A program made the position numbers and the translations under genes. Below, piece by piece: positions 4,744-61,504 of a stretch of 64,000 bases of DNA; the stretch's first letter is position 1, and each line of letters opens with the position of its first letter. The notes under the pieces are model-generated. The model searched no databases. It was not told the DNA's origin and was given only the letters and a program-made list of their open reading frames with translations. The stretch is from an uncultured Acidobacteriota bacterium (GTDB taxonomy: Bacteria; Acidobacteriota; Terriglobia; UBA7540; JAPUME01), in the NCBI GenBank assembly GCA_964605715.1, contig CAZSDV010000002.1, forward strand, positions 167 to 64,166. Direction: 5' to 3'.

Positions 4744-4761
4744 TCACCTTAGTCTTTGCTC

Positions 4762-36288: not shown

Positions 36289-36300
36289 GGGTTGAAAGTG

Positions 36301-36377
<77 letters not shown>

Positions 36378-43188: not shown

Positions 43189-43231
43189 TTGAGTTCTCCT
43201 GGCCAGCCCCGACTCATATCTCCTCCACTCC

Positions 43232-43493
43232 TTGTCAACCAGACCTAGTTAGCTAGAAAAAGAATTATGATATCTTAATGCCTTCATCAGCATTGTTAAG
43301 TTACTCATAGAGTTTCCTCACTCCCCCATAAAATAGTTGTGTTATAATGCGCCTGCAGTTTGTTGTTGTAATTCCGATGAGCATCACATCAGATTTAAGA
43401 GTAGTTCCTTCTATTGCTCCTCCCTTTTGTGACCTGCGGTATTACAGCGGGTCGTCCGGTGAATGCCTGCAACCTTAATACGAATTGCCAAAT
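43232..43493. repeat. 262-bp perfect inverted repeat, copy A (csp promoter plus 5' leader)
   Basis: Base-by-base comparison by eye: 43232-43493 equals the reverse complement of 61243-61504 with no mismatch seen. Identity stops 22 nt before the csp ATG on one side and at TTGTCAACC on the other. Confidence 0.9.
43340..43348 (+). promoter_or_regulatory. extended -10 promoter element (TGTTATAAT) for the cold-shock gene
   Basis: TGn-TATAAT at 43340-43348 with no good -35. Predicts a 5' UTR of roughly 160 nt, similar in length to the E. coli cspA leader. The mirrored copy lies at about 61388-61396 on the minus strand. Confidence 0.45.
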
Positions 43494-43515
43494 CAATTAA
43501 AAGGATGTTTTCAGA

Positions 43516-43725
43516 ATGAGTGATAAAGAGCAAGGAACAGTAAAATGGTTTAAATCCGAAAAAGGTTACGGGTTTATCCAACGGGAAGCTGGTGACGACG
43601 TTTTTGTTCATTTTTCGGCCATTCAGGGTGACGGCTATCGTACCCTCGAAGAGGGCGACAGAGTGAGCTTTGAGGTCACCAAGGGACCTAAGGGCCTGCA
43701 AGCAGCCAACGTCGAGCGAGCTTAA
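43516..43725 (+). CDS. cold-shock protein (CspA family)
   Basis: 69 aa. RNP1 KGYGFI and RNP2 VFVHFSAI. Confidence 0.95.
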
Positions 43726-43744
43726 TCAGAGCGTGGGCAAAAAA

Positions 43745-43770
43745 GGCGACCCTTTTGGGTCGCCTTTTTT
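43745..43770 (+). terminator. intrinsic terminator after csp
   Basis: GGCGACCC-UUUU-GGGUCGCC followed by a U6 run. The A-run upstream makes it potentially bidirectional. Confidence 0.85.
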
Positions 43771-43990
43771 ATTTCACCCCAGAAATAACTTTAAATCAAA
43801 TTTACCATACTCCATTTAGAAAATACGGCTCGGTGCCTGACCATGTTCTGGTTTATGTGGCCGTTTCCAAATCCAGAGAGATTTAATGAGGAAGCAGAGA
43901 GTCTACAGTCGGGTCAATTTGGGTATTATTCCTCTTACGCTCGCAATCGTAATGTGCGGTTCGATCGAGCAAAGGAGAGAAAGGGATGGA

Positions 43991-44428
43991 ATGATAATCT
44001 CAACAGGCAATAAAGTTTCCATCGAGTACACGCTATCCCTGGAAGACAAAACTGTGGTCGACACCAACGTAGGATCACAACCCTTAACCTACATTCATGG
44101 ATCTTACCAGATTGTCCGGGGGCTAGAAGAAGGGTTAGGGGGGTTGAAAGTCGGGGACACTAAGCAGGTTACCGTTCAAGCTGAGGAAGGTTATGGTGCT
44201 ATCAATCCGGATGCCTTTCGAGAAGTCGATAAAGAGGAGATCCCACTTGAAAGTCGAGAAGTTGGTGCAAAGCTACGGGGCCGTGATACTGCTGGCAGAA
44301 ATCTTGAAATTCAAGTGGCAGAAGTAAGGAATAAGACGGTTCTCCTAGATTTTAACCATCCCCTTGCTGGCAAAACCCTCTATTTTGAAATCAAGGTGCT
44401 TGACATCGCCAAGCAACCTGTCCAGTAA
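43991..44428 (+). CDS. FKBP-type peptidyl-prolyl cis-trans isomerase (SlyD-like)
   Basis: VSIEYTL...VD, an IF-type insertion, and LDFNHPLAGKTLYFEIKVLDI. ATG at 43991 is preceded by AAGGAGAG. The 35 extra codons in the ORF track lack support. Confidence 0.85.
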   Translation: MIISTGNKVSIEYTLSLEDKTVVDTNVGSQPLTYIHGSYQIVRGLEEGLGGLKVGDTKQVTVQAEEGYGAINPDAFREVDKEEIPLESREVGAKLRGRDTAGRNLEIQVAEVRNKTVLLDFNHPLAGKTLYFEIKVLDIAKQPVQ

Positions 44429-44562
44429 GCTCCCTGCTGCAGCCTCAGCCGAAACAAAAATCCCAGCGGGAGCCCCCTGAATCAATGAACTAGCAAATGG
44501 GAAAGCATGGGTATTCATATGTCTCACGTACCTTGTGAAGTAACTAGGCGAGGTTCATGGAA

Positions 44563-45081
44563 CTACTGTCCTAGGCTGTGACACAGGTGGCACTCGTTTG
44601 AAACCTTTCTGGAGAAATGGCAGCTCATACAGCTATTCATTCTCGTCGAAACTTCTCTGGCCAGTACATCACTTTGTTCAACCCTACCGTGGCAGGCGGA
44701 GCACTTCTCTCCAGCATTCAAATGGTTGACATGACTAAAGAAAACAAAGTGTGGAACCTGATAGATGCGTACCCATTTCACCTGCTGCCCTCGTTGGTCG
44801 AATTCCGCTAACTTCTTGAGCTCAGGATGGGTGGCACGGCTGGAAGCATGGCAAAGCACACATTGTTCAACGTTAGGAATACCTGCTCGGTCTTTGCTGT
44901 TTGCATCAGCATGGCAGGTTTGGCAAGGGAGGCCAGCCGTAGCATGCTTCTTGTGGCTGAAGGAGATGGGTTGCGAATCCACCCGCATAGGGAGCTTTTC
45001 TTCTTTTCCTTTATAGGACTTTGGTTCTTGGCCAAAAGAAGCCGTTACCATTACGCAAACGAGAAGGTTTCTTAGAAACAA
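44563..45081 (-). CDS. pentaheme c-type cytochrome (cytochrome c3/c7 family)
   Basis: Five CxxCH motifs (CQTCH, CVLCH, CSACH, CMSCH, CHLCH) plus FSHKKH. Start uncertain. The TTG at 45081 has a GGAGA RBS and gives a clean signal peptide (M)FLRNLLVCVMVTASFG. The ORF track extends to 45282. Confidence 0.8.
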   Translation of the reverse strand: MFLRNLLVCVMVTASFGQEPKSYKGKEEKLPMRVDSQPISFSHKKHATAGLPCQTCHADANSKDRAGIPNVEQCVLCHASSRATHPELKKLAEFDQRGQQVKWVRIYQVPHFVFFSHVNHLNAGEKCSACHGRVEQSDVLAREVSTRMNSCMSCHFSRKVSNECHLCHSLGQ

Positions 45082-45324
45082 CCATCTCCAGTTGCTCCCT
45101 CTGAGTTGGTAGCAATAATTTGAGACCCATGCCTTGTAAACCAGGCAGTTAGGCCATAATCTCAGCGGGCTCGACATGCTAAGCGCAGCGAAGAATCTCA
45201 TCCAGACCACAAAACATAAAAAATTAAATTCTTTGTTTTTTCTAGTATGTTCCCAGGCCTCGCCTGTAACTTTAGTTATCAATGCAACAATAGACTCTTT
45301 TGAAATATTACGTCCACCCCGAAA

Positions 45325-47289
45325 CTACGGAAGGGAAAACACCATGAGCTTCCCGGAGAAATTCTCATTGTACTTATTTCCTCCTCCGGCAGCGATTACG
45401 ACGAACTGTTTACCAGTTTTCCTGCCCAGGAAGGTCATTGGGGAAGCGTGGCCACTGGCCGGAAGGTGCGTCACCCATAGTTGCTCTCCTGTATCTTTGT
45501 CAAAGGCGCGAAATCGCTCGTCGTTAGTTGCGGCGATAAAGACGAGGCCTCCTGCAGTCACAATAGAACCTCCAATATTTGGAGTTCCGGTCTTGGGGAC
45601 TCCTTGCGCCTTGAGTTCATCAAACTCACCGAGCGGCACACGCCACTGAAATTCACCTGAGATCAGATCGATCGCTGTTAAGGATCCCCAGGGAGGCTTT
45701 TGGCAGGGGTACTTGTTGGTATCCCAGAACCGCCCTCGGAGTGCGCGCACAGCGTACGGAAGCATCGAACCTTCAGGTCGCTTGACCATTCGGAATAGGC
45801 CACCGACATCCATCGAATTAACGTATAATACGTGGTTCAAAGGGTCAAACGAGCCCCCACCCCAGTTTGCCCCACCATTCGTTCCCGGAAACATAACTGT
45901 GGTACGTTCACTGACAGGATGGTAAAGGCTTTTGGGTAAAATGGCATCTTGGATCAATCCTAGGCATTCTTTCTTAGATTCCTCCGTTACCTCAGTTAAT
46001 TCATCATGAGTCATAAACTGTCGAGCAAAAGGTGGTGGTTTCACCGGAAAGGGCTGTGTGCGCGAGGTTTTTTCCCCAGGAACATTTGATTGCGGAACGA
46101 GCCTCTCCTCTACATCGAATAGTGGCTTACCCGTGACTCGATCCAGCAAGAAAAGAAACCCAGTCTTCGTGATCTGGGCGATGGCCTGTACCTCTCTACC
46201 GTCGCGGGGCACGCTCACAAGTATTGGCTGTGCCGGTAAATCATAATCCCAAATATTGTGGTGGACCGTCTGGAAGTGCCACTCTCGCTTGCCAGTTTTA
46301 CAATTCAGTGCCACAACACTATCGCCAAAAAGGTTTGCTCCTTTTCGGTCACCTCCGAAAAAATCGTAAGATGGTGAGGTAAGCGGCACGAAAACTGTCC
46401 CTTTTCGCTCATCAACACTTAATATCGACCAAGCATTAACGCCTCCCCGGTCCTTCCATGAATCCACTTCCCAGGTATCATGGCCGAATTCCCCCGGACG
46501 AGGAACGGTATGGAACCGCCAAAGCTGCTTTCCTGTTCGAGCATCCCATGCGCGAATATCTCCGCTCGGTCCCCGTGGCCGCCCGTCGCTTACCAGGCCG
46601 CCCGCAATAACGATGTTTCCACATACGGCCACCGGTGATGTCAATTGGTAGTGACCCTCAGGAAAGTTTTCTGTGATTCCCCGCTTGAGATCAAGCATTC
46701 CACCTTTACCGAACTCTGGGTCGGGTCTCCCTGTAACAACATCGATAGCGAAAAGCCGACCCTCCATATCGCCGAGGAATATTCGTTTCCGTTTTCCATC
46801 ACTCCAGTAAGCTACCCCACGATTTATGAAGAGATTGCCACGCATCATCTTGTTGATCTTTGGGTCAAATTGCCACAGCTCTTTACCTGTTTCTGCCTCA
46901 AGAGCGATCAGGCGAGAGAAAGGCGTAGTAATATACATGATCCCGTCCATCACGAGCGGAGTGGCTTCAAAAGTTGATCGAATAAGATTCACGGTACCGT
47001 CACTGAAATCTCCTGTATCGTAGATCCAAGCAACCCGGAGCTTAGCCACATTGCCTTTGTTGATTTGCTCGAGTGGAGAGTATCTTTGGCCACCGGGATT
47101 GCCTCCATACGCTGGCCACTCTTGAGAAAGAACGTGGGTGGGGCCCAGGTATACTATTAAAACAATTAGAACGACCCTAGAAAGAGAGAGACCGCCATGA
47201 ATTTTTGGGATAAATCCTAAAAGCGAGCCAGAAAAGCAGGTTTTACGATTTTTCCGTAAGCTTGCATAACTACCGACATAGTTGTTCAA
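45325..47289 (-). CDS. PQQ-dependent dehydrogenase (eight-bladed propeller quinoprotein)
   Basis: 654 aa. Signal/anchor segment, WPAYGGNPGGQRYSPL N-terminal motif, and repeated W-containing propeller motifs. No fused heme domain. TTG start. Confidence 0.85.
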   Translation of the reverse strand: MNNYVGSYASLRKNRKTCFSGSLLGFIPKIHGGLSLSRVVLIVLIVYLGPTHVLSQEWPAYGGNPGGQRYSPLEQINKGNVAKLRVAWIYDTGDFSDGTVNLIRSTFEATPLVMDGIMYITTPFSRLIALEAETGKELWQFDPKINKMMRGNLFINRGVAYWSDGKRKRIFLGDMEGRLFAIDVVTGRPDPEFGKGGMLDLKRGITENFPEGHYQLTSPVAVCGNIVIAGGLVSDGRPRGPSGDIRAWDARTGKQLWRFHTVPRPGEFGHDTWEVDSWKDRGGVNAWSILSVDERKGTVFVPLTSPSYDFFGGDRKGANLFGDSVVALNCKTGKREWHFQTVHHNIWDYDLPAQPILVSVPRDGREVQAIAQITKTGFLFLLDRVTGKPLFDVEERLVPQSNVPGEKTSRTQPFPVKPPPFARQFMTHDELTEVTEESKKECLGLIQDAILPKSLYHPVSERTTVMFPGTNGGANWGGGSFDPLNHVLYVNSMDVGGLFRMVKRPEGSMLPYAVRALRGRFWDTNKYPCQKPPWGSLTAIDLISGEFQWRVPLGEFDELKAQGVPKTGTPNIGGSIVTAGGLVFIAATNDERFRAFDKDTGEQLWVTHLPASGHASPMTFLGRKTGKQFVVIAAGGGNKYNENFSGKLMVFSLP

Positions 47290-47423
47290 AACTATTTGCT
47301 CCGACTGCTTTTTAGGAGATTAGCCTGGTCAGTCGGCAGAAATACTAGACGAGCAGGCAGAAGTTTTCAAGTCTAGTTGGATATTTTTTCGAGTAAGAAG
47401 TTTTCAGCCTCCGAATTTCCCGC

Positions 47424-47452
47424 TTGACTCCTGATCCCACATTCGGTTAATA
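47424..47452 (+). promoter_or_regulatory. promoter of the riboswitch-btuF-cobO transcript
   Basis: TTGACT (47424-47429), 17 bp spacer, TTAATA (47447-47452), just upstream of the aptamer. Confidence 0.45.
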
Positions 47453-47462
47453 ATGACCGCGA

Positions 47463-47610
47463 ACTTGGTACCAACGGGAAGCCGGTGAAAAACCGGCACG
47501 GCCCCGCCACTGTGAGCGTAGAGGGCCGGAGCAGTACGGGCCACTGGGGTAAATACCCTGGGAAGGCAGCTCTGGTTCAATGAAGCGCAAGTCAGGAGAC
47601 CGACCAAGTA
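47463..47610 (+). promoter_or_regulatory. cobalamin (AdoCbl) riboswitch
   Basis: Core GGUACCAACGGGAAGCCGGUGAAAAACCGGCACGGCCCCGCCACUGUGAGCG, B12 box GGGCCACUGG...CCCUGGGAAGGC, AGUCAGGAGACCGACC, and P1 ACUUGGU/ACCAAGU. Upstream of B12-binding and salvage genes. Confidence 0.9.
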
Positions 47611-47856
47611 ATCCCCAAGCTTGAATCGACCTCGAAGGGGGTGTCGATGAGCATTCTTTACCCTTCATTTTAAAACTTTGGTAAGAGCGCTCTTGCTATC
47701 TTCCCTCGGGAAGTTAGCTTTGTGGATTCCTGGAATATCGGAAGAAGGAAAGGTCATCCCCCTAATACCAGGAAGTCCAGTTGAGGAAAAGGCTAATACA
47801 TGCAAATCCTAGATTTCCATCGTGAGCTTGTGGCATATCCGACGCCGGGTGCATAA

Positions 47857-48741
47857 ATGAAAAAATCAACTAGAAATATGGTGTGGGTTGCGTTGATTTT
47901 CGTTGCTGGCACACAGGGAATGTTCGCTCGCAAACTGACGGATGCATTGAATCGCACTGTAAATCTTCCGGATCGTCCTCAAAGAATTGTTTGTCTTTCC
48001 CCAAGCCTCGCAGAAACAGTTTTCGCATTGGGACTTGACGAATTCGTGGTTGGAGTAACCGATTTTACTGAATACCCACCAAGTGTACCCAGCAAGCCCA
48101 GTGTGGGCGAATTGGTAAATCCGTCTATAGAGAGGCTCATTTCACTTCAACCCGACCTGGTCCTGGCAGAAATGGGCCTGAATCGGCCCGGCTTGATCAT
48201 TCAATTGGAACATCTTGGAATTCCCGTTTTCGTTTTTAATCCACAGAGCTTGAATGAAGTCCTAATAACCATTCAGCAGATCGGTGACATTTTAAATCGG
48301 ACCTCTGAGGCACAGAACCTGGTTAAGCTGTTAATGGAAAGGCGCCAGGAAGTACACCGAAAGGTAAGTAAATTCCCACGGCCAAGGGTCCTTATGGTGG
48401 TCTGGTATTCACCGGTCATCACAGCTGGAGGCAAGGCGTTTGTTACAGATGTGATTTCAGCAGCAGGTGGAGAATCAGTCACGGCGAACATCCCTCAAGC
48501 CTGGCCACAGATAAGCCTTGAAGAAGTTCTACGCCGTGAACCGGATATTCTACTCCTTGTGCAAGGACCTCATGGTGGAATGACGCTTGAGGAGTTAAGA
48601 AACCACGAGGGGTGGAGTCGACTAGGCGCTGTTATCCAAAATCGAGTGGTTTATATGGGTCAGAATATGGAACACCCTAGTCCTCTCGTTTTTGATGCTC
48701 TAGAAGAATTGGCAAGAAAGCTTCATCCAAAAGCATTTTAA
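47857..48741 (+). CDS. btuF: cobalamin/siderophore-type ABC transporter periplasmic binding protein (BtuF-like)
   Basis: 294 aa. Signal peptide. PBP type 8 pattern PQRIVCLSPSLAETVFALG. Riboswitch and btuCD context. Confidence 0.8.
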   Translation: MKKSTRNMVWVALIFVAGTQGMFARKLTDALNRTVNLPDRPQRIVCLSPSLAETVFALGLDEFVVGVTDFTEYPPSVPSKPSVGELVNPSIERLISLQPDLVLAEMGLNRPGLIIQLEHLGIPVFVFNPQSLNEVLITIQQIGDILNRTSEAQNLVKLLMERRQEVHRKVSKFPRPRVLMVVWYSPVITAGGKAFVTDVISAAGGESVTANIPQAWPQISLEEVLRREPDILLLVQGPHGGMTLEELRNHEGWSRLGAVIQNRVVYMGQNMEHPSPLVFDALEELARKLHPKAF

Positions 48742-48759
48742 CCAGATTGAGGTGGAGAT

Positions 48760-49317
48760 ATGAAAAAGAAAATCACGCGGGTTGGTAGCTCAGCAAGAAA
48801 GCAGAAAGGGCTAATCATAGTAAATACAGGAGATGGAAAGGGCAAGACCAGTGCGGCCTTAGGAGTGGCCCTGCGAGCTTCAGGCTACGGTATGAAAGTG
48901 GCTATGATCCAGTTCTTTAAGGGAAAGTGGAAGTACGGCGAACTTAGAAGTGCTCCGAAGCTTGAAACTTTTGAAATCCTGCCTATGGGTAAGGGGTTTA
49001 CCTGGGAAAGTGACGATATCGAGATCGACAAGAACATGGTTCGAGCCGCATGGCAAGAAGCCAAGAAACGTATACATTCGGGAGAATACAAAGTGTTTAT
49101 TCTGGATGAGATCAACTACGCGCTAAGCTATGGGTATCTTCCGGTTGATGACGTCATTAATTGCCTAAAGACCAAGCCCCCAATGCTCCACATCATTCTA
49201 ACCGGACGGGATGCAAAACCTGAAATTATTGAAGTGGCAGATCTTGTAACAGAAATGCGCGAAGTTAAGCATCCATTTTCACGGGGAATTTCGGCTCAAA
49301 AAGGAATCGAGTTCTAG
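48760..49317 (+). CDS. cobO: cob(I)yrinic acid a,c-diamide adenosyltransferase (CobO/BtuR type)
   Basis: 185 aa. P-loop TGDGKGKTSAALG and the ILDEINYAL and VKHPF motifs. Confidence 0.88.
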   Translation: MKKKITRVGSSARKQKGLIIVNTGDGKGKTSAALGVALRASGYGMKVAMIQFFKGKWKYGELRSAPKLETFEILPMGKGFTWESDDIEIDKNMVRAAWQEAKKRIHSGEYKVFILDEINYALSYGYLPVDDVINCLKTKPPMLHIILTGRDAKPEIIEVADLVTEMREVKHPFSRGISAQKGIEF

Positions 49318-49346
49318 GCTTGTTGCGTTAGGAAGAACACAAAAAC

Positions 49347-49495
49347 TCGCCGGCAGGATGAATGAAAAGCGCAGTGAAATTCCGCTACTGCCGCTAACTG
49401 TAAGCAACGGTCAAATCTGCAAAACCACTACCCGCAAAGGTGGAAAAAATGGGTATTCCGAAACGTTGCAAGTTGAGGGACTGGTCCCGTTGGCA
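49347..49495 (+). promoter_or_regulatory. second, divergent cobalamin-riboswitch-like element
   Basis: GCAGUGAAAUUCCGCUACUGCCGCUAACUGUAAGC parallels the GGUGAAAUCC...CCCGC.ACUGUAA core, and ACCACUACCC...GGUGGAAAA parallels the B12 box. Several normally invariant positions differ. Located directly upstream of the TonB receptor-btuC-btuD genes. Confidence 0.5.
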
Positions 49496-49533
49496 TATCC
49501 CCAGTCCTCTCTTCCGAGGGTGAAAGAGCACGC

Positions 49534-52011
49534 ATGTCACTTTTGAAGTGTTGCCAAAGTCGCTTCTATTTTTTCCTTTTGATATTCGTTTACTTTGTCA
49601 CTTTGGGACCATCGTTGCCTGTCTCTGGAAAAAACCTAAAAGGAGCGGTCCGTGGGCGGGCGCTTGATCCGCTAGGAGATGTGGTCCCATATGCAAAGGT
49701 TGACCTACTTCAAAAATCAATCGTGATTCAATCAACAACGACGGACCGAGAAGGGAGATTTGAATTTAACGTTGTAATTTCAGGTCGCTATTACATCCGG
49801 ATCAAAGCGACAGGATTTCAGGTCAAGGAAAGCGAGACCGTATTTCTACCACCGATGGGAATCGTCCAAATCGATCTAGCCCTCCCCATCGGCACCTTAC
49901 GCCAACAATTCGTTGTGTCGGCTACAGGCACAGAAGTGTCTGCATCCCAGGTTGGTGCCTCAGTGAGCGTGATCGATAATCAGCGACTCGAATTAGCTAA
50001 CAAGTTAGACGTACTAGAAGTTTTGCGTTCGGTCCCAGGCGTGCAGGTCGTGCAAACCGGCCAGCGGGGAGGGGTAACATCACTGTTTATCCGTGGTGGC
50101 AACGCTAACTTCAATAAAGTGCTCATCGATGGGGTCCCTGCCAATGACATCGGAGGTAGTTTTAATTTCGCGAATTTATCAACAACGGGAGTGGAACAAC
50201 TAGAATTATTGCGAAGCCCCAACAGTGTTCTTTACGGCACAGACTCCCTAGGAAGCGTCGTCAATATTACTACCCGTCGTGGTGCTTCTAGTGTTCCGGA
50301 GTTCACATATTCTGCCGACGGGGGGAATTTCCGAACGGCTCGGCAAGAAATTTCCTTGGCTGGTGCACTTCGCCAAATTGACTATTTTTCTGATTTATCG
50401 TACTTCAAGACACGCAATGCTCTTCCTAATAGTGCCTTCCGCAATCAAACCTACTCTGGAAATTTTGGTTGGAAGGCTAATCGTACAACAGATATCCGAC
50501 TTAATATCCGACATACTTCCGTTGCGTTGGGTCTGCCAAGCGCTCTCGATTTCTACGGAATTCCGGACGACTCATCTCAGCGGGACCGCACCACGCGTAT
50601 CGGTGTAACCGCTAGAAATCAAACCACCACGCGCTGGCATAACCTAGTGCGGTTCGCCTCCAATGGGCTCAATTTGAATTTTACAAATCCCACACCAACG
50701 GGGGAAGCATTCGACCCCTTTGGCTTTGGGGCTAACTTCCTCGGCAATCAGGTTACGATTAAAGCGGCCAACGGGTTTAGCGTAAATGGCAGGGCTATCC
50801 TCGATTTCGGTGGCATCTACCCACAGCTTTTTGATGTCAACACATTGAGGCGCTCTCTCTACACCCAATCAGATTTCAACCTTAAACCTGACCTAAAAAC
50901 TACCTTTGGTTTTCGCTTTGAAAACACGCATGGGTTTACTGCAACTTCTAGTTCTCGGTCAACCACGGAGCGAAAGAGCCTTGGGGCTTTCATGCAAGCT
51001 CACGGACGGATTTGGCGTCGTACTTACCTTACGGCGGGGTTAGGCCTCGAAAAAAATGCCATCTTCGGATTTGCTGTAACACCACGTGTTTCGTTGGGTT
51101 ACTACCTGAGACAAGGTGCCTCAGGGACATTTTTAAATAGTACGAAACTGAGATTTAATTTTGGAACTGGCATTAAGGAGCCAAGTGTCTTTCATGAAAG
51201 TTCTTCTCTCTTTAGTCTTCTAACGGAACTCACAAATGGTAGTTCCTCGATCTCACAGTTCGGTGTTTTTCCAATCGGACCTGAGAAAAGCCGGAGTTTT
51301 GATTTCGGATTTGACCAAAAATTATGGGACGGGCGTGCTAGCCTAGGAATCAACTTTTTTCATAACCAATTTTTTGATCTGATCGAGTTTGTTGCCAAAG
51401 ATACTCTTCCTCAACTTGGAGTACCTATAGCGGCCGCGGTGGCAACTCCCTTTGGAGCTGCAATTAACTCTTCTTCTTTTTATGCCCTTGGCATGGAAAC
51501 GGAATTCCTAGCGCGACTTAGCAGCGGATTGCATGTACAAGGGCAGTATACCTACCTGAAGGCAGCGGTGAATGAATCCTTTTCCAGTGGCGCTATTCAG
51601 CCAGCTATTAACCCCTTGTTTCCTGACATCCCTATTGGTGCATTTTCACCCCTGATAGGAGGTAGGCCTTTCCGGCGCGCGCCACATTCAGGAAGTTTCG
51701 AGGTAGGGTATTCGAATGGAAACTTAGCGTTCATGTTCAGTGGTTACTTTGTTGGGCGCCAAGATGGCAGTAGCTTTCTTTCTGACCCGCTTTTCGGAAA
51801 CTCACTGCTCTTGCCAAATCATAATTTCATCTCGGGTTACCAGAAAATTGATTGGAGCGGATATTATTCTTTTGACCACGGGATTGCATTTTATACCAGC
51901 ATCGAAAACCTTCTTAGCCAGCATTACCAGCCGGTACCAGGATTCCCCGCTTCCCCACTAACGTTCCGTACCGGCCTCAAGATTAGGCTAGGAGGAGAAA
52001 ACTGGAGATAA
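49534..52011 (+). CDS. TonB-dependent receptor with N-terminal carboxypeptidase-regulatory-like domain
   Basis: 825 aa. Signal peptide, a CarboxypepD_reg-like beta-sandwich (GRFEF...GRYYIRIKATGF), a plug domain (RSVPGVQV...IRGG) and a C-terminal beta-barrel. Context suggests a BtuB-like role. Confidence 0.85.
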   Translation: MSLLKCCQSRFYFFLLIFVYFVTLGPSLPVSGKNLKGAVRGRALDPLGDVVPYAKVDLLQKSIVIQSTTTDREGRFEFNVVISGRYYIRIKATGFQVKESETVFLPPMGIVQIDLALPIGTLRQQFVVSATGTEVSASQVGASVSVIDNQRLELANKLDVLEVLRSVPGVQVVQTGQRGGVTSLFIRGGNANFNKVLIDGVPANDIGGSFNFANLSTTGVEQLELLRSPNSVLYGTDSLGSVVNITTRRGASSVPEFTYSADGGNFRTARQEISLAGALRQIDYFSDLSYFKTRNALPNSAFRNQTYSGNFGWKANRTTDIRLNIRHTSVALGLPSALDFYGIPDDSSQRDRTTRIGVTARNQTTTRWHNLVRFASNGLNLNFTNPTPTGEAFDPFGFGANFLGNQVTIKAANGFSVNGRAILDFGGIYPQLFDVNTLRRSLYTQSDFNLKPDLKTTFGFRFENTHGFTATSSSRSTTERKSLGAFMQAHGRIWRRTYLTAGLGLEKNAIFGFAVTPRVSLGYYLRQGASGTFLNSTKLRFNFGTGIKEPSVFHESSSLFSLLTELTNGSSSISQFGVFPIGPEKSRSFDFGFDQKLWDGRASLGINFFHNQFFDLIEFVAKDTLPQLGVPIAAAVATPFGAAINSSSFYALGMETEFLARLSSGLHVQGQYTYLKAAVNESFSSGAIQPAINPLFPDIPIGAFSPLIGGRPFRRAPHSGSFEVGYSNGNLAFMFSGYFVGRQDGSSFLSDPLFGNSLLLPNHNFISGYQKIDWSGYYSFDHGIAFYTSIENLLSQHYQPVPGFPASPLTFRTGLKIRLGGENWR

Positions 52012-52112
52012 TGGAAGGCAAGGTAGAGGTATCTACTGGGCAAAATAAGTTGGATGTCTATTTCAGGTGAAAATTGAATTTTAAACCCGAAAGGTTCTCC
52101 AGGGAATCGGCC

Positions 52113-53174
52113 ATGTTAGATCGCAGCGGGAACGCTACAGCGCGCTATCGTTTTGGACTTTTTTTCCTCGCGGGACTCCTCCTACTCTCTACCATCCTTG
52201 CGGTTACGATCGGGGTTGTGGAGGTTTCTCCACGCACTATGCTTTCTGTGTTACTTAACCGGATAGGGTTTACTGACTTTCCTCAGATGTGGGCGCCTAG
52301 CGATGAAGTTATTATCTTGCATCTCCGTCTGCCCCGTGTTTTAGGAGCCGCACTTGTCGGGGCGGCCCTTTCGGTTGCAGGCATTCTTTTTCAGGGACTC
52401 TTAAGGAACCCCATGGCTGACCCGTATGTAATCGGCACTTCGGGGGGGGCGGCACTGGGCGCAAGCATCGGCCTAGTGCTCTCCAATTATTTTTCCATCT
52501 TGGGTTTCAGTGCAATCCCAACCTTTGCATTTCTAGGGGCAACAGGAACCATGATACTCGTTTACCACCTAGCAAAAGTGGGGGGACGCACGCCGGTGGT
52601 GAATATTCTCTTGGCTGGGTTTTCGGTAAGCGTAATTCTCGGGTATACCATGTCATTTCTGTTAATCGTGAACGATCGATTGCAGGTAAACGTGCGGATT
52701 CTCTACACGTGGTTGTTAGGAGGAGTTTCGATCTCTCGCTGGCCCCAGGTGGGGATCATTGCTTTGATAGTTGTTTTGGGTATTATCCTGGCATTTGTGT
52801 TCGCTAGAACCTTAAATGTTCTTTCATTAGGGGAGGAGCATGCTGCCCACCTAGGTATTCCTGTTGAGCGTCACAAAGCTGCACTAATTGCGATTGGCTC
52901 TCTATTGACAGCGGCTGCCGTTACTACGGCGGGGCTGGTCGGATTCGTTGGTTTAATCGTTCCTCATTTCCTCCGCTTGCTGTTTGGTCCAGATCACACT
53001 CGATTGCTGCCATTGGGAGCTCTAGGGGGAGCTGCCTTTCTAGTTTTTGCTGACTTACTAGCACGAATTGCCATGCCTCCTACAGAATTGCCCGTCGGAA
53101 TCTTGACCGCCTTTGTGGGGGGGCCAGCTTTCCTGTTTTTATTACGCCGGGCAAAGCGTGAGTATCGCCTTTGA
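52113..53174 (+). CDS. btuC: FecCD/BtuC family ABC transporter permease
   Basis: FecCD pattern: RLPRVLGAALVGAALSVAGILFQGLLRNPMADPYVIG, and the C-terminal GILTAFVGGPAFLFLL. ATG at 52113 is preferred over the TTG at 52074. Confidence 0.88.
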   Translation: MLDRSGNATARYRFGLFFLAGLLLLSTILAVTIGVVEVSPRTMLSVLLNRIGFTDFPQMWAPSDEVIILHLRLPRVLGAALVGAALSVAGILFQGLLRNPMADPYVIGTSGGAALGASIGLVLSNYFSILGFSAIPTFAFLGATGTMILVYHLAKVGGRTPVVNILLAGFSVSVILGYTMSFLLIVNDRLQVNVRILYTWLLGGVSISRWPQVGIIALIVVLGIILAFVFARTLNVLSLGEEHAAHLGIPVERHKAALIAIGSLLTAAAVTTAGLVGFVGLIVPHFLRLLFGPDHTRLLPLGALGGAAFLVFADLLARIAMPPTELPVGILTAFVGGPAFLFLLRRAKREYRL

Positions 53175-53190
53175 CTCTTGGAAATTAACC

Positions 53191-54009
53191 ATGAAGACAA
53201 TTGAGGTTCACAAACTCTGTTTTCAATACAAACACCACCCGGTGCTGGAAAGAGCTTCTTTGGGCATTAAGGCCGGAGAACGCGTGGCCTTACTTGGCCC
53301 CAACGGCGCAGGGAAAACGACTTTATTAAAACTTATCAGCGGGGCGCTAGCTCCGGCCCGGGGAACAGTTAGTCTTAATGGACTTACACTAAGCAGCATT
53401 TCAAAGAGAAGCTTGGCACGAACAATCGCTATCGTCCCACAGGAATTCAGTGTGCCTTTTGCATTTACCGCCCAGGAAATCGTTGAGCTCGGGAGGACGC
53501 CTTATCTGGGCCTTCTGCATGGTGTGAGGGCCGATGACCGCCTTGCCGTCGAGAAAGCCATGGCATTGACCGATACGATTCCGCTCGGGCAACGCATTTT
53601 CAATGAGTTGAGCGGAGGCGAACGCCAACGTGTCATGATTGCCATGGCACTGGCACAGGAACCGAAAATTCTGCTTTTGGATGAGCCAACTCAACAACTG
53701 GATATTGCTCGCCAAGCTGGAATTCTAGATTTAATCGTAAATCTAAATCAAGAGCAAGGGCTGACGGTACTGTGTGCGATCCATGATCTAAACCTCGCGG
53801 GCAGCTACTTCCATCGACTAATCGTTCTTCATGGTGGTTCAGTTCTGGCGGATGGGCCCCCGACTGATGTGCTACGTTCAGACCTTCTTGCGAAAGCGTA
53901 CGATGGCCCAATAGAGGTGGCATTAATCGAGAACCGTCGTATACCAGTGGTCTTGTCTCCATCCGAGCCTAATATTAAGCTGACGAAGAGAACAGAGTTT
54001 GACCACTGA
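53191..54009 (+). CDS. btuD: ABC transporter ATP-binding protein (BtuD/FecE type)
   Basis: Starts MKTIEVHKL. Walker A GPNGAGKTT, signature LSGGERQR, Walker B LLLDEPT. The ORF-track start at 53113 would overlap btuC by 62 nt. Confidence 0.9.
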   Translation: MKTIEVHKLCFQYKHHPVLERASLGIKAGERVALLGPNGAGKTTLLKLISGALAPARGTVSLNGLTLSSISKRSLARTIAIVPQEFSVPFAFTAQEIVELGRTPYLGLLHGVRADDRLAVEKAMALTDTIPLGQRIFNELSGGERQRVMIAMALAQEPKILLLDEPTQQLDIARQAGILDLIVNLNQEQGLTVLCAIHDLNLAGSYFHRLIVLHGGSVLADGPPTDVLRSDLLAKAYDGPIEVALIENRRIPVVLSPSEPNIKLTKRTEFDH

Positions 54010-54119
54010 ACCACTCAGTCACAGAAAATTTCCTGGCCATTATTAAATAAAACATCTTGGTGCAAGGGATGAAACTATGAATAAATTTTCGATGAAAAAG
54101 AACCCTTGTAGAGTGGAGC

Positions 54120-55076
54120 TTATTCGCTTTGAGGGGATTTTAATCCTAAAAGCTTAGCCCCATTCTCATAAAGAATACGATGGAGCTTACCACTATCAGG
54201 TATGAGATGGCGCAAGACGGCAAGGGACTTCGCACCAATACAATTTCCTCGATTTACTCCAGCACCCTTTCCGTCTAGGCAATCACAGTCACTGCCCCAA
54301 ATCAGCTGACGGTGGTGGCGCTCCAAAAACCCGGATGCGAAATCCGGGTCGCGAGTGATCGAGTTTAAGCCAGAGCCAGCTGACAAATCCCCATACATGT
54401 TTGGGTAATCAGAAAGTAATCGATCAGTAAGTCCACCCGGCCTTACCTTTCCGGTTGGGTACGTAACCTGAGGATTCAGGTCGGCACTGATATTTCCCCA
54501 CCAGGTTTGAGCATGACCAATGAATTTAACAGTTGGATAATGATCCAAAATCTTTGAAAATCTGGGGAAACCCGTATTATATCTTTCGTATAAAAAATGG
54601 ATCAGTACAGGAATATCCATCTCCTTGGCTAGCGAGTAGATCCGATGCATTTCAGCTGAGTCAACTGCAACATGAAATTTCATCTCTCCAATACCGATTG
54701 CACCTCTTTCTATATTTTCCCGTAGGACATCCACTGCGCGAGATTCAGCTGCATCGGCACAGGCAAACCGAACAAATCGACCTGGATAGCGCAATTCAAC
54801 CTCTGTGCAACTCTGATTACTACCCACCTGATCAAGCATCCAGCCCTCACCGGGCAACAGGACTGTGGTCGTTACCCCAAGGAAATCTTGATGGGCTACA
54901 AGGTGGTCATGTGGGCGTCTTTTATAAAAAGTGTGTTGGTGGAGGTCAAGAATTGGCTTACCCAATTCAAAAGGAATCTTCCAACTTAATGCCCCAGCGC
55001 TCAAACTCGTCCCAAGAAAACTTCTCCTCGAAACTCTCAAGGTCAACTGAAATCTCCTTTCCCTCAGTGAGGACAA
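54120..55076 (-). CDS. amidohydrolase-family (TIM-barrel metal-dependent hydrolase) protein, Tat signal
   Basis: 318 aa. RRSFLGTSLSAGAL signal. DLHQH near the N-terminus and the HAQ.. and GSD.. motifs are consistent with the Amidohydro_2 fold. Substrate unknown. Confidence 0.6.
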   Translation of the reverse strand: MSSLRERRFQLTLRVSRRSFLGTSLSAGALSWKIPFELGKPILDLHQHTFYKRRPHDHLVAHQDFLGVTTTVLLPGEGWMLDQVGSNQSCTEVELRYPGRFVRFACADAAESRAVDVLRENIERGAIGIGEMKFHVAVDSAEMHRIYSLAKEMDIPVLIHFLYERYNTGFPRFSKILDHYPTVKFIGHAQTWWGNISADLNPQVTYPTGKVRPGGLTDRLLSDYPNMYGDLSAGSGLNSITRDPDFASGFLERHHRQLIWGSDCDCLDGKGAGVNRGNCIGAKSLAVLRHLIPDSGKLHRILYENGAKLLGLKSPQSE

Positions 55077-55126
55077 TGATTATCATAGAGCATTCGGCTC
55101 TCGCATTTTACCAAACTGATTAAGAC

Positions 55127-58100
55127 ATGAGAAACTCAATACTCTTGTCCCTATTTTCGTCGGCGATATTTTTCTCGGGTTGCTCCGTTGAGGATCGATC
55201 GCCAGGGCCCCTTTCCCCCGAGCAAGCCCTAAAAAGCTTCCAGATCCACCCGGATTTCCGCATAGAGATTTTTGCTACTGAACCCCATGTAATAGATCCG
55301 GTTGAATTGGTATTCGACGAGGACGGTCGGGCATTCGTAGCTGAAATGCTTGATTACCCAATTGATCCAGTTATAGGCAACCCACCCCGAAGTCGCATCC
55401 GCTTGCTGGAAGATTTTGATAAAGACGGCCGAGTGGATCACTCACGGATCTTTGCAGAGAACCTTTTGCAAGTAACGAGCATGCTCCCCTGGAAAGGTGG
55501 CCTTATCGTTACTTCAGCTCCAGATATCCTCTATTTAAAAGACACCGATGGTGACCTTAAGGCTGATCTTCGTCAGGTTCTTTTTACTGGATTCTCCATG
55601 GGTGACCCTCAGGCACGCATTACGAATCTCCGGTTTGGTATTGACAATTGGATCTATGCATCTAATTATGGCCAGCCAGGAACTATCACATCACCAGCAT
55701 TCCCCGGCGCACAATCTGTATCAGTTTTTGGAGCTGACTTTCGTTTCCAAATTGACCAAGGTCGATTCGAGGCAGCTTCTGGTACGGCACAGTTTGGCCT
55801 AGCCATTGATGACTGGGGTCGTCGCTTTATTACGCAAAATACAGTCCACGTTCGCCACGTCGTCATTCCCAGACGTTACTTGGAGAGAAATCCTTACCTT
55901 TCACGTGGCAACACCATGCAAGATATCTCCGACCATGGACGTCCTACAGCCCAGATTTTTCAGCTTACCTCCCCGCAGGACTGGAGGAAAACAAGAACCC
56001 AGATTCGCCAGCGCCGCTTCGATGAGTTAGATGTGGATCGCACTGAAGTGGTAAGCGGCTATTTCACTGGAGCTTCAGGTGGGACTTTTTATACAGGGGA
56101 CACGTTCCTTGAAAAATACCGTGGGAATTTGTTTACCGGTGATGTAGTAGGAAATCTGGTTCATCGTGACCTTATAGTTCCAGAAGGACCTATCTTTCGT
56201 GCTGAGCGTGCGCCCGAGGAACGGGACCGAGAATTTCTAGTTTCAACCGATCCATGGTTTCGTCCTTGTAACTTCACTACTGGTCCAGACGGGAACCTGT
56301 ATATGATCGATATGTATCGCGAGTTCATTGAGACACCTGCTTCAATTCCTTCGAGTCTACTAAAAAACATGAACACGTTCAGCGGGGACGAGCTCGGACG
56401 AATTTACCGTATCGTTCGAGTAGATTCGCCCCCAGTACAGCCCATTGAACCTCGCCTCTCCGATACAGCAACACAAATGCTAGTTCGACTTCTTGAACAG
56501 GAGAATAACTGGTGGAGAATAACGGGACACCGAATGCTACTCGAAAAAAAAGATCTCTCAGCAATTCCAGTACTACGGAGTTTAGTGCAAGGAAACCCTC
56601 CCCCTACACGCGTGCATGCACTCTACATTCTCGATGCTTACTCTGCTCTGGATCAACAACTAGTTGAGGTTGCCCTGGGGGATCCAGCCTCAGGAGTTCG
56701 GGAAAACGCTCTTAGGCTAGCTGAAAACTATCCTGAGCTTGAAACTCGCGTGGCGGAAATGACAAATGATCCGTCTTCTCGAGTTGCACTGCAACTCGCT
56801 TTAAGTTTAGGGGAATTCTCTGGCCAGGAAAGCTCTAAGGCACTTACCACGTTGGCCTCAAGATATGGCCATGACCCATGGTTTCAAACAGCAATTTTGA
56901 GTTCTAAGACCGGGTCCTCGCCCCAGCTCCTTCAAGCCATGCTTCACCAGGAAAATTTCTTTGTTGAACCGAATTCAGGAAAAGAGAAATTCTTAGAAGA
57001 GTTAACAGCAATCATTGGAGCACGATCCGAGCCACAACAAGTCGCGCAGCTTATAAACTTGCTTTACCAAGAGCAACAGCTGCAGGCTGAAGCTTGGCAG
57101 GTCGCCGGATTGAACGGGCTAGCACGAGGGCTTGATCTTGCAGGGACCCATCGGTCTAGAATTCGCGTTGAAGATATGGTGCTGACACGGTGGTTGCAAA
57201 GTGGATCCGAAAAGGTTCAAGTGGCAGCACTAAACCTTGCACGCCATTTCACAAATTCGTATCTCATCGCGGTATCTTCCCGCCAGGCAAAAGATGTAAG
57301 CCTTCCTATGGAAAGACGCAGAGCGGCAATCCAGTCCCTAACAGGAGGAGAGCTCCTTAACGTCCAAAAAGTGTTTGAGCAATTACTTGATTTAGAAATG
57401 GATCCGGAACTCCGAAAAACATTAATTTTCTCACTCGGACAATTCGATGACCCGAGCGTGACGGATATTTTGATTTCCCATTGGAAAAGGCTTAGCCCTA
57501 ACGCGCGCAAACACGTTCTGGACGTTTTGCTGGGGCATCAAACCCACATGCTTCAGCTTTTAGAAGCAATTAGAGATGGGAGAATTGAGCGCGCAGCCCT
57601 CGATCCCAGCCGACGCGAAAAACTCCTGCACCACTCTGATTTCAAGATTAAGGAGCAGGCCGCACGATTATTCCCAAGCGATGAGGCGCCGATCGATAGG
57701 CCGAAGCCTTGGGAAAACTATCGTTCGGTACTTGACATCAATGGAGATAGTGCACGGGGCAGGCCAATTTTTGAGGAGAGGTGTGGGGCCTGCCACTTGC
57801 CGAAAAAGAATAAACAAGTGGGCCCTGACCTAGCGCGCGTGAAAGGTAACACCGGAGCCCAATTACTACAGAAGATTCTTGATCCCAGTCAAGAGATCGA
57901 CCCCAAGTATACAAATTATATAATCACGACTACCGATGGGCTGATACACGATGGCGTGATATTCTCCGAAACTCCGGGCACATTGACTTTGTGGAGTGGA
58001 GAAGAGGAGGACAACGCGATCCTTCGTTCAAACATTTTGAACATTCGTGCCTCGAGCATATCATTGATGCCAGAGGGATTAGAAAAAGACCTCAGCCAGC

Positions 58101-58156
58101 AGGATTTGGCTGACATACTTGCATTTCTGCAAGGAGGCACCCTCCATAACCATTGA
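55127..58156 (+). CDS. PVC-type heme-binding CxxCH protein (putative membrane-bound dehydrogenase domain + HEAT repeats + C-terminal cytochrome c), lipoprotein
   Basis: 1009 aa. Lipobox FFSGC. N-terminal FATEP...DPV.L.FDEDGR..V.EM.DYP pattern. HEAT-like middle. C-terminal CGACH ... M ligand region. Confidence 0.8.
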   Translation: MRNSILLSLFSSAIFFSGCSVEDRSPGPLSPEQALKSFQIHPDFRIEIFATEPHVIDPVELVFDEDGRAFVAEMLDYPIDPVIGNPPRSRIRLLEDFDKDGRVDHSRIFAENLLQVTSMLPWKGGLIVTSAPDILYLKDTDGDLKADLRQVLFTGFSMGDPQARITNLRFGIDNWIYASNYGQPGTITSPAFPGAQSVSVFGADFRFQIDQGRFEAASGTAQFGLAIDDWGRRFITQNTVHVRHVVIPRRYLERNPYLSRGNTMQDISDHGRPTAQIFQLTSPQDWRKTRTQIRQRRFDELDVDRTEVVSGYFTGASGGTFYTGDTFLEKYRGNLFTGDVVGNLVHRDLIVPEGPIFRAERAPEERDREFLVSTDPWFRPCNFTTGPDGNLYMIDMYREFIETPASIPSSLLKNMNTFSGDELGRIYRIVRVDSPPVQPIEPRLSDTATQMLVRLLEQENNWWRITGHRMLLEKKDLSAIPVLRSLVQGNPPPTRVHALYILDAYSALDQQLVEVALGDPASGVRENALRLAENYPELETRVAEMTNDPSSRVALQLALSLGEFSGQESSKALTTLASRYGHDPWFQTAILSSKTGSSPQLLQAMLHQENFFVEPNSGKEKFLEELTAIIGARSEPQQVAQLINLLYQEQQLQAEAWQVAGLNGLARGLDLAGTHRSRIRVEDMVLTRWLQSGSEKVQVAALNLARHFTNSYLIAVSSRQAKDVSLPMERRRAAIQSLTGGELLNVQKVFEQLLDLEMDPELRKTLIFSLGQFDDPSVTDILISHWKRLSPNARKHVLDVLLGHQTHMLQLLEAIRDGRIERAALDPSRREKLLHHSDFKIKEQAARLFPSDEAPIDRPKPWENYRSVLDINGDSARGRPIFEERCGACHLPKKNKQVGPDLARVKGNTGAQLLQKILDPSQEIDPKYTNYIITTTDGLIHDGVIFSETPGTLTLWSGEEEDNAILRSNILNIRASSISLMPEGLEKDLSQQDLADILAFLQGGTLHNH

Positions 58157-58203
58157 TGGCCATCGAGACAATTTCTAATTTCAAGTAGCAAGGGAGGATA
58201 GCA

Positions 58204-58935
58204 GTGAACCTAAAAGGAAAAGGCGCAATAGTCACCGGTGGTGGGAGTGGCATTGGACGGAGCATTGCCATATCGCTCGCAGCAGAAGGGTGCAAGGTTG
58301 TTGTTGCGGGACGGCGACAAGAACACCTACGCGCAACGGCTCAACTTTGGGCAGGTCAACCACAGATCCTTAATTTCCCCGTGGATGTAGCAGATCGCGA
58401 GAGCGTCAAGAAGCTTTTCATCTGGGCTGAGGAACAACTGGACTCCATTGATATCTTGGTTAACTCCGCTGGGATAAATATTCAGAACCGTACTATGGCA
58501 GATGTTATACCAGAGGATTGGGATCGTGTTCTTGCCATCAACGCCACTGGTACGTTCAATTGCATCCATTCTGTTGTGGGGAAAATGCGTGAGCGCGGCG
58601 AAGGACTTATCATTAATATTTCCTCAGTTGCAGGAAAGCGCGCTTCTGCTCTTGGAGGGATTCCATACAATGCGTCTAAGTTTGCCATGACCGCGCTTGG
58701 GACGACAGTTGGACTTGAGGAGATGAAAAATGGCATTCGAGTAACAAATATCTACCCCGGCGAGGTAGATACACCCATCTTAGAAAAACGCCCATCACCG
58801 GTGACCAACGAACACCGCTCCCGAATGTTAAAAGCTGAGGATGTTGCTGCTGCCGTTCTCATGGTTGCCCGCCTGCCAAACCGGGCACATGTTCCCGAGC
58901 TAGTCATTAAGCCAACTTACCAAGACTATGTGTAA
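58204..58935 (+). CDS. SDR family oxidoreductase
   Basis: 243 aa. TGGGSGIG cofactor motif, NSAG, catalytic YNASK. GTG start. Confidence 0.88.
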   Translation: MNLKGKGAIVTGGGSGIGRSIAISLAAEGCKVVVAGRRQEHLRATAQLWAGQPQILNFPVDVADRESVKKLFIWAEEQLDSIDILVNSAGINIQNRTMADVIPEDWDRVLAINATGTFNCIHSVVGKMRERGEGLIINISSVAGKRASALGGIPYNASKFAMTALGTTVGLEEMKNGIRVTNIYPGEVDTPILEKRPSPVTNEHRSRMLKAEDVAAAVLMVARLPNRAHVPELVIKPTYQDYV

Positions 58936-58982
58936 TAGGATCTATTCCCATCTTAAGAAGATCACCTTATCATGGGGGGCAA

Positions 58983-60938: not shown

Positions 60939-61017
60939 AAAAACCTAACAAATAAGGTAGTTATTTGCCAAGTTGACGTGCGGAAGACTGCAAACGAATA
61001 GGTCCTGTCTCGTTCAT

Positions 61018-61221
61018 CTAGAGGCGTTCCACATTCTCCGCCTGCAGACCTTTGGGCCCCTTGGTGACCTCAAAGCTTACGCTCTCCCCTTCTTGAAGAG
61101 AACGGTAGCCTTCACCTTGAATGGCCGAAAAATGAACAAAAACGTCGTCCCCATTTTCGCGGCCGATAAACCCATAACCTTTAGAGGCATTAAACCACTT
61201 AACAGTTCCTTGTTCCTTCAT
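61018..61221 (-). CDS. cold-shock protein (CspA family), second paralog
   Basis: 67 aa. KGYGFI and VFVHFSAI. About 75% amino-acid identity to the 43516 copy by eye, with many synonymous DNA differences. Confidence 0.95.
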
Positions 61222-61242
61222 GCCCTAGCATTCCTTTTTCCA

Positions 61243-61504
61243 ATTTGGCAATTCGTATTAAGGTTGCAGGCATTCACCGGACGACCCGCTGTAATACCGC
61301 AGGTCACAAAAGGGAGGAGCAATAGAAGGAACTACTCTTAAATCTGATGTGATGCTCATCGGAATTACAACAACAAACTGCAGGCGCATTATAACACAAC
61401 TATTTTATGGGGGAGTGAGGAAACTCTATGAGTAACTTAACAATGCTGATGAAGGCATTAAGATATCATAATTCTTTTTCTAGCTAACTAGGTCTGGTTG
61501 ACAA
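61243..61504. repeat. 262-bp perfect inverted repeat, copy B (csp promoter plus 5' leader)
   Basis: Reverse complement of 43232-43493 with no mismatch seen by eye. Confidence 0.9.

Follow-up and report, generated by a model that had tools for sequence, protein, structure and literature searches.

Two diverged cold-shock genes in inverted orientation share an identical promoter and leader module in an Acidobacteriota genome, probably through recent recombination

The 64,000-nt stretch of an uncultured Acidobacteriota bacterium analysed here (contig CAZSDV010000002.1; hereafter the window) carries two genes for cold-shock proteins (Csp), cspA and cspB, which lie in opposite orientation and are preceded by the same 262-nt module. 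A repeat search of the whole window returned the module as the arms of an inverted repeat, 262 nt long, 100% complementary and separated by a spacer of 17,749 nt (Table 1). This agrees, boundaries included, with an earlier sequence-only reading in which one arm was described as the exact reverse complement of the other. The window holds two copies of the module only. The same search detected a second, diverged pair of arms across the csp coding sequences (43525–43718 and 61025–61218; 194 nt, 79% identity). The module edges are sharp: read on both strands, the DNA outside the two 5′ ends is unrelated, and the identity tract stops at ...AATTGCCAAAT, 22 nt before the ATG of cspA (43516) and 21 nt before that of cspB (61221). 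A 22-nt gap had been claimed for both genes, which is right for copy A and one nucleotide too long for copy B.

The proteins encoded downstream are clearly distinct. CspA and CspB share 54 of 65 residues by BLASTP (83%, and not the approximately 75% given in the sequence-only reading), and 32 of 64 third codon positions are identical (50%), in line with the many synonymous differences noted there. A match of 262 consecutive nucleotides has a chance probability of 7e-149 in random sequence and of 1.5e-27 at the 79% identity of the adjacent coding sequence (CDS); given the region-specific identities between sister strains described below, the probability of 262/262 is ~3e-12. The two csp genes also have a 32-nt coding block in common, correctly spotted before (43594–43625 and 61118–61149). 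It encodes 12 residues, its nucleotides are nearly invariant in several relatives, and it marks the A-to-B switch point of a chimeric gene found in a sister strain (L039, see below); the block may be a recombination anchor or may reflect constraint at the nucleotide level.

Independent assemblies containing these loci were found by exact-protein look-ups. The 16-kb scaffold L011, obtained in a different study, matches the window at 100% along 801 nt, from the B flank through the module to cspB, and also carries the acetyl-CoA synthetase (ACS) gene. Scaffold L052, from a third sample set, contains the 3′ part of a ceramidase-like gene, the module with no differences, cspA and the FKBP gene; its A junction is the same as in the window (...CTCCTCCACTCC/TTGTCAACC...). 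Three further contigs open within shared sequence: L012, assembled with k = 127, begins with exactly 127 nt of the module, L013 begins with 55 nt, and L050 (a Logan contig, k = 31) begins within the 32-nt coding block. A de Bruijn graph is expected to yield contigs that stop one k-mer into shared sequence wherever there is a true two-context repeat. The sequence-only reading had named an assembly artefact among the outcomes that would refute it; both junctions recur in the assemblies of other samples, and the 262-bp repeat is not such an artefact.

According to Pfam annotation, the interval between the copies comprises, in order, cspA, FKBP, cytochrome c, PQQ dehydrogenase, a B12 riboswitch with an uptake operon, DUF7133, a short-chain dehydrogenase (SDR), ACS and cspB. 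The gene cspA is followed by an intrinsic terminator and then by the FKBP gene. On the other side, cspB (minus strand) adjoins the ACS gene and is divergent from a gene encoding a YggX-like Iron_traffic protein; its ribosome-binding site is the same as in the sister strain represented by contig L048.

Table 1. Positions of the described features along the 64-kb window
Feature	Position	Strand	Basis or remark
Module copy A: upstream DNA, promoter and first 139 nt of the cspA 5′UTR	43232..43493	+	Repeat arm; A-flank junction recurs in L052
Module copy B: identical sequence upstream of cspB	61243..61504	-	Repeat arm; L011 100% identical across B flank, module and cspB
AT-rich (67.5% AT) first 80 nt of the module, 5′ of the promoter	43232..43311; mirror 61425-61504	+	
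Extended -10 promoter element TGTTATAAT	43340..43348; mirror 61388-61396	+	Read from sequence
Predicted 161-nt cspA 5′UTR, from the putative transcription start G43355 to the ATG	43355..43515	+	Cross-lineage conservation from GCAG
Predicted 160-nt cspB 5′UTR; 139 nt same as copy A, final 21 nt including ribosome-binding site cspB-specific	61222..61381	-	
Invariant U/G-rich 5′ block GCAGUUUGUUGUUGUAAUUCCGAUGAG; candidate Csp-binding or 'cold-box'-like element	43355..43381; mirror 61355-61381	+	
Small hairpin GAGUA...UGCUC	43399..43419	+	Two compensatory pairs
Local hairpin GACCUGC-GGUAUUACA-GCGGGUC (named in the sequence-only reading)	43431..43453	+	
Conserved AAUUGCCAAAU block just 5′ of the Shine-Dalgarno sequence; its last base is the end of the identical tract	43483..43493	+	Leader alignments
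cspA-type gene, 69 aa	43516..43725	+	Translation
cspB-type gene, 67 aa	61018..61221	-	Translation
cspA intrinsic terminator, GC-rich stem then U run	43739..43770	+	Sequence reading; aligns to terminator part of several Rfam models
Interval between the inverted copies, 17.7 kb	43494..61242	.	Pfam annotation

The module appears to combine a promoter with most of a long 5′ untranslated region (5′UTR). In every lineage compared, an extended -10-like element (TGn + TAnnnT type) is situated 6–7 nt 5′ of a conserved GCAG. Conservation of the leader across lineages starts at this GCAG, and the distance from it to the ATG is 160–163 nt in every lineage, including nine contigs from JGI. This spacing, together with the start of conservation, places the putative transcription start near G43355 and predicts a 161-nt 5′UTR; the extended -10 element and the ~160-nt leader proposed from the window alone both fit these comparative data, the former being kept upstream of GCAG. 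No good -35 element is present in the window's clade, and a consensus promoter scan missed the sense promoter, which lacks one, returning a single weak antisense match no better than those in shuffled sequences. The E. coli cspA promoter also pairs an extended -10 with AT-rich upstream DNA.

The leader has a wide distribution. In JGI metagenomes, 10 contigs contain the 27-nt string GCAGTTTGTTGTTGTAATTCCGATGAG without mismatch, each time 160–163 nt before a csp start codon, and these contigs include soil relatives only ~70% identical over the remaining leader and CDS. Ten relatives, designated group 2, encode a 100% identical CspA protein beside FKBP. Their upstream region aligns to the window from 43312 onward at 88–91%, whereas their FKBP protein is only 66% identical to that of the window (protein P0124, listed on the same 3,037,681-nt contig as L005). 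A leader ~90% identical next to a neighbour at 66% shows that the leader is under strong selection. In a more distant lineage (L014–L023, L027), cspB orthologues beside ACS have a leader ~71% identical to the module. The leaders of another type of csp paralog, encoded with a sigma-70 gene, share the 3′ half of the leader, including the AAUUGCCAAAU block.

Within the window, a profile of the family matched the cspA leader and its mirror copy at cspB and nothing else; elsewhere it matched only csp upstream regions. Scanning a genome collection with the hairpin pattern yielded one species representative, L027, a 'Terriglobia bacterium' metagenome-assembled genome (MAG). Homologues of the Csp proteins and their neighbours come from Acidobacteriota/Bryobacterales, mostly from marine samples. 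The leader is thus common to marine and soil Acidobacteriota, and the earlier suggestion that it is lineage-specific does not hold.

Searched against Rfam at gathering thresholds, the whole window gave a cobalamin riboswitch, a tRNA and the signal recognition particle (SRP) RNA, and no csp-leader match. The cspA thermoregulator family (RF01766) scored 50.3 bits (E = 7.8e-12, 43371–43771) against a gathering threshold of 78; high posterior support in this sub-threshold alignment falls mainly in the CDS and the terminator, and the other permissive matches are terminator look-alikes. The leader does possess the broad features of csp 5′UTRs: a position directly upstream of a cold-shock domain (CSD) gene, a length in the 110–160-nt class and conservation beyond neutral expectation. 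Neither an Acidobacteriota csp leader nor conversion of a csp promoter turned up in literature searches. Judging from sequence comparison, this is a conserved csp-leader family of ~160 nt in Acidobacteriota, absent from Rfam. An open reading frame within the leader (43377–43478, +; ATG at 43377, 33 codons, MSITSDLRV...) was considered as a leader peptide and rejected, as its ATG or its frame is lost in other lineages.

Folding of 17 distinct leaders from ~4 independent lineages with RNAalifold predicts three helices: a long-range helix, a UCRCA/UGUGA helix and the small hairpin 43399–43419, with pairing in 100% of alignment cells. The long-range helix joins the 5′ block (UUGUUGUAA..CC) to GG..UUACAGCGG, the latter being the loop and 3′ arm of the hairpin 43431–43453. 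It uses 43363–43375 of the 5′ block, and 9 of its 11 pairs never vary; the variation is confined to its internal loop, which is consistent with a helix and is no proof of one. The local hairpin and the full long-range helix are mutually exclusive. This local hairpin is the one named in the sequence-only reading. Its conservation stands, whereas its formation is less certain: 89% of cells pair with no compensatory change, its predicted probability in the cspA mRNA is ~0.1, and its loop has a rival partner. In thermodynamic folding, both helices receive a low probability. A pairing for the long-range helix drawn manually from the leaders of the csp-sigma70 type was not reproduced by the folds and was dropped, and a reading of the leader alignment revealed no pairing between the ribosome-binding site (RBS) and an anti-RBS conserved across lineages.

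From these predictions we infer a two-state model, in which the local hairpin would alternate with the long-range helix, as in other csp leaders. By analogy with E. coli cspA and S. aureus cspB/C, the leader would control mRNA stability and translation in the cold and mediate Csp autoregulation, so that a role as thermosensor or autoregulatory element is plausible. The likely means would be the invariant U/G-rich 5′ block and its alternative pairings with the downstream hairpin. Csp proteins bind U/G-rich sequences. For S. aureus, CspA has been proposed to bind a UUUGUUU motif in the cspB and cspC leaders (PMC8034633).

Conservation of the leader raises the question of why the two copies are not merely similar but identical. 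Three sister-strain contigs (L038, L039 and L048) carry the cspB locus at ~93% identity to the window and allow the module to be compared region by region. Between the window and these orthologous loci, 14–15 of 81 positions differ in the first 80 nt (82–83% identity), 4–6 of 42 in the promoter, and 5 of 139–143 in the leader (96.5% identity). Over the whole tract, orthologues of sister strains thus show 23–26 differences, against 0/262 between the two copies within one genome. Taken together with the 79% identity of the CDS and the 50% identity of third codon positions, a 262/262 tract has the appearance expected of interlocus gene conversion. The first 80 nt evolve too fast for selection to account for their identity; a recent non-reciprocal copy is required. 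The identity of only ~82% between strains in this part, and the csp chimeras described below, support the earlier inference of a recent gene conversion or transplantation rather than plain duplication.

The same 80 nt indicate a direction of transfer. Apart from the two loci of the window, they were seen only at the sister-strain cspB locus (L038, L039, L048), where they are collinear and homology runs on into the B flank. They are absent from the group-2 cspA locus, which has a dehydrogenase gene remnant instead. The most parsimonious reading of this distribution is that the segment is native to cspB and was copied to cspA, which suggests the direction from cspB to cspA at least for the first 80 nt. 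The weak antisense sigma-70-like match mentioned above (TTAACA-16-TAAGAT; 43272–43299 on the minus strand, 61437–61464 on the plus strand; no better than shuffles) lies within these 80 nt. At locus B it faces the divergent Iron_traffic gene (61673–61990), and at locus A the end of a convergent gene; its position at B fits an origin of the first 80 nt at that locus.

Locus A itself has been rearranged, since none of the relatives examined has the same gene 5′ of cspA; an orthologue of the ceramidase-like gene found in L053 is not beside a csp gene. As separate observations on this region, the group-2 loci (L001–L010, ~2200–2783) have fragments of a short-chain dehydrogenase gene upstream of cspA, and L001 also IS21-type transposition genes; the variation of upstream context among near-identical loci marks the region 5′ of cspA as prone to rearrangement. 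In the window, the 15-mer TAAAATAGTTGAGTT (43181–43195) spans the stop codon of the ceramidase-like gene and recurs with one mismatch at 43329–43343, just 5′ of the -10 element. The copy at the gene end is native, as the L053 orthologue ends in ...GAAATAGTGG. The recurrence is probably a coincidence, although it could be a relic of the rearrangement of locus A.

Recombination between the two loci has also left traces in the coding sequences of sister strains. Two database proteins, encoded on contigs L038 and L039, are chimeras of CspA and CspB. L038 has the context of the cspB locus (Iron_traffic upstream, ACS downstream) but carries an A-type ribosome-binding site and A-type N-terminal codons up to codon 12. 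In L039 the 3′ region is of B type, whereas the ribosome-binding site and the codons from the N-terminus as far as the 32-nt block in the middle of the CDS are of A type. The two contigs come from assemblies with k = 119 and k = 141, and the switch points lack any stretch of common sequence as long as these k-mers, which makes an origin of the chimeras during assembly unlikely.

Cluster look-ups also revealed a 10,139-nt ENA contig on which five proteins are listed. Three are encoded by A-flank genes (a PhoD fragment, an NHL protein and the C-terminal 422 aa of the ceramidase-like protein); the others are a CspB-type protein (P0002) and the C-terminal 252 aa of the B-side DUF7133 protein. In the window, these A-flank and B-side genes are 14–20 kb apart. 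Their fit within 10 kb implies that the A flank and module are joined to cspB-ACS-SDR-DUF7133, i.e., that the interval of 17.7 kb stands in inverted orientation. The reciprocal join would be represented by a 2,556-nt contig, on which a full CspA-type protein (P0404) is listed together with an Iron_traffic protein (P0373). These listings indirectly suggest an inverted form of the interval in a sister strain. Two successive inversions with different crossover points would also yield the L038 and L039 chimeras. No recombinase, as would belong to a site-specific invertible segment, occurs among the Pfam annotations of the 17.7-kb interval and its flanks; given this, and with 262-bp control regions of genes as the repeats, an inversion would proceed by general homologous recombination. 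Chimeras and contig listings together point to ongoing recombination between the inverted copies.

The explanation that we consider probable is that a conserved csp control region with a ~160-nt leader has been homogenised by recent recombination between inverted loci. Two inverted homologous loci 17.7 kb apart would recombine with each other, and a recent non-reciprocal transfer would have replaced one control region by a copy of the other. At its 3′ end the tract stops within the AAUUGCCAAAU block, which is conserved in all leader types and would have supplied the homology at this side. As a result, control at the levels of transcription and leader would become the same for both Csps. This recombination substrate would also give rise to the chimeric csp genes of sister strains and probably to inversion of the interval.

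Several observations weigh against this explanation or parts of it. At its 5′ end, the tract shows no homology or microhomology between the flanks, so that homology is not present on both sides; classical two-sided conversion is therefore incomplete as an account, and a one-sided (homology-facilitated illegitimate) event or a later deletion has to be assumed. The direction and timing of the transfer rest on parsimony, with the sister strains L038 and L048 known from the cspB locus; a search by way of FKBP and ceramidase-like homologues recovered the A junction of L052 and no diverged A locus. The inverted form derives from shared contig listings, not from sequence, and could be a mis-join across the repeat. 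As regards the leader RNA, pairs changed on both sides amount to 2 of 21 among the 17 sequences from ~4 lineages, both in the small hairpin 43399–43419. Folding of single sequences barely beats shuffles (z = -0.45 and -1.9 for the 5′UTR with the first codons, and -2.45 for the 5′UTR alone). In the thermodynamic model, the predicted unpaired probability of the Shine-Dalgarno sequence and AUG is not raised at 4–15 °C.

The missing homology at the 5′ junction of locus A, and the rearranged state of this locus with its unusual upstream gene, would be accommodated by a one-off transplant via imported DNA, for example by transformation with a fragment of a related strain and one-sided homology. However, copy A matches the resident B copy exactly and none of the sister-strain variants, and the chimeras and the likely inverted form show resident loci recombining with each other; we consider an imported origin unlikely. 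A mobile promoter-bearing element, similar to a miniature inverted-repeat transposable element (MITE) or a cassette and inserted upstream of both csp genes, would account for the sharp edges and for a 5′ boundary without homology between the flanks, but it is very improbable. The module has neither terminal inverted repeats nor a target-site duplication, and over its final 180 nt it is orthologous to the csp leaders that occupy this position in other genera. All JGI matches of the 27-mer and all profile matches are directly upstream of csp, and the window has just the two copies.

Purifying selection alone, by which old paralogous leaders would have stayed identical because every base is functional, draws on the 96.5% identity of the transcribed part between sister strains and the ~90% identity to relatives with an FKBP at 66%. 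It is hardly tenable, as the first 122 nt (the 80 nt plus promoter) differ at 18–21 positions between sister strains, and the leader at 5, against none of 262 within the genome, and as identity between the module and the orthologous cspB leader of the more distant relative is only ~71%. A collapsed or mis-joined repeat producing the duplication or its perfect identity might be feared in a contig that is probably metagenome-assembled and has a repeat longer than common k-mer sizes, but this is next to impossible given that L011 and L052 reproduce one junction each with unique sequence on both sides and that in three other assemblies contigs break off precisely k bases inside the shared sequence.

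Homogenisation by recombination between the resident loci, and a long regulatory leader upstream of csp genes, both have known counterparts. The 5′UTR of E. coli cspA is 160 nt long (PMC6386945). The cspA family of this bacterium (cspA, cspB, cspG and cspI; RF01766) resembles the window in having a ~160-nt leader common to csp paralogs, with one conserved block at the extreme 5′ end and another just upstream of the Shine-Dalgarno sequence. In contrast, there is no detectable sequence homology between the UTRs, and the phylum is different. In S. aureus, cspB and cspC have paralogous 5′UTR thermoswitches of 110–160 nt, for which mutually exclusive pairings were proposed (Catalan-Moreno et al. 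2021, PMC8034633). Similarly, the invariant UUUGUUGUUGU block of the window is predicted to be able to pair with the loop and 3′ arm of the downstream hairpin. However, the staphylococcal UTRs are similar and not identical, and the window leaders lack a conserved anti-RBS:RBS pairing. To our knowledge, no conversion has been described for staphylococcal csp UTRs.

For the recombination, the closest likeness is found in the tufA and tufB genes of Salmonella, where gene conversion was reportedly linked to inversion by Hughes in 2000. These genes lie in inverse orientation, their contiguous conversion tracts average a few hundred nucleotides with an average walk of ~500 nt each way (Paulsson et al. 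2017, PMC5485169), and about half of the conversion events also invert the interval (PMC5485169). The csp case shares the inverted paralogs, a non-reciprocal contiguous tract (262 nt), varied end points of the chimeras and a probable inverted form. It differs in that the whole tuf CDS is homogenised, whereas here the promoter and leader are, with the CDS remaining 79% identical, and in that one end of the csp tract lies in non-homologous DNA.

Some further csp loci of relatives deserve mention. On the 3.6-Mb contig ERZ28763718:ctg125244 (L029/L036), csp and a downstream sigma-70 gene are duplicated as a 2.37-kb unit at 96% identity (2820–5189). The duplication begins ~180 nt upstream of csp, which corresponds to the start of the leader, and its flanks are unrelated; this is a second case of a csp control region at a duplication edge. 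In L014–L023, a gene for an RRM_1 RNA-binding protein (3223–3606) separates cspB from ACS, and csp is preceded by ~1 kb of non-coding DNA; the window has neither.

Elsewhere in the window, the cobalamin riboswitch (107 bits; 47449–47622, +) within the 17.7-kb interval precedes an apparent B12 uptake and salvage operon with genes at 47857–54009. The operon encodes a periplasmic binding protein, a CobA/CobO adenosyltransferase, a TonB-dependent receptor, an FecCD permease and an ABC ATPase. Outside the interval, a bacterial small SRP RNA (36045–36143, -) and a tRNA gene (36300–36373, +) are located beside a sulfatase gene.

The csp case is best described as concerted evolution by recombination of inverted paralogs, a known kind of biology that is here confined to promoter and leader, and the leader as a well-conserved addition to the long regulatory leaders already known from csp genes. 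A much bolder combination, which we speculate about and regard as doubtful, is that the inverted csp control regions act as a hinge repeatedly flipping 17.7 kb and shuffling N- and C-terminal parts of Csps in wild populations, and that the leader is at the same time an undescribed Acidobacteriota RNA switch, whose 5′ block would alternate between Csp binding and pairing with the hairpin loop and so set cold-dependent translation.

The locus offers a natural example in which recombination homogenises only the regulatory part of paralogous genes: two diverged proteins would be placed under identical control, and sister strains gain chimeric genes. For work with MAGs, it is relevant that a 262-bp repeat of this kind fragments assemblies and can give alternative joins. 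Acidobacteriota are abundant in soil and ocean and have almost no experimental genetics; the leader is a target for testing a cspA-type RNA response to cold beyond Proteobacteria and Firmicutes.

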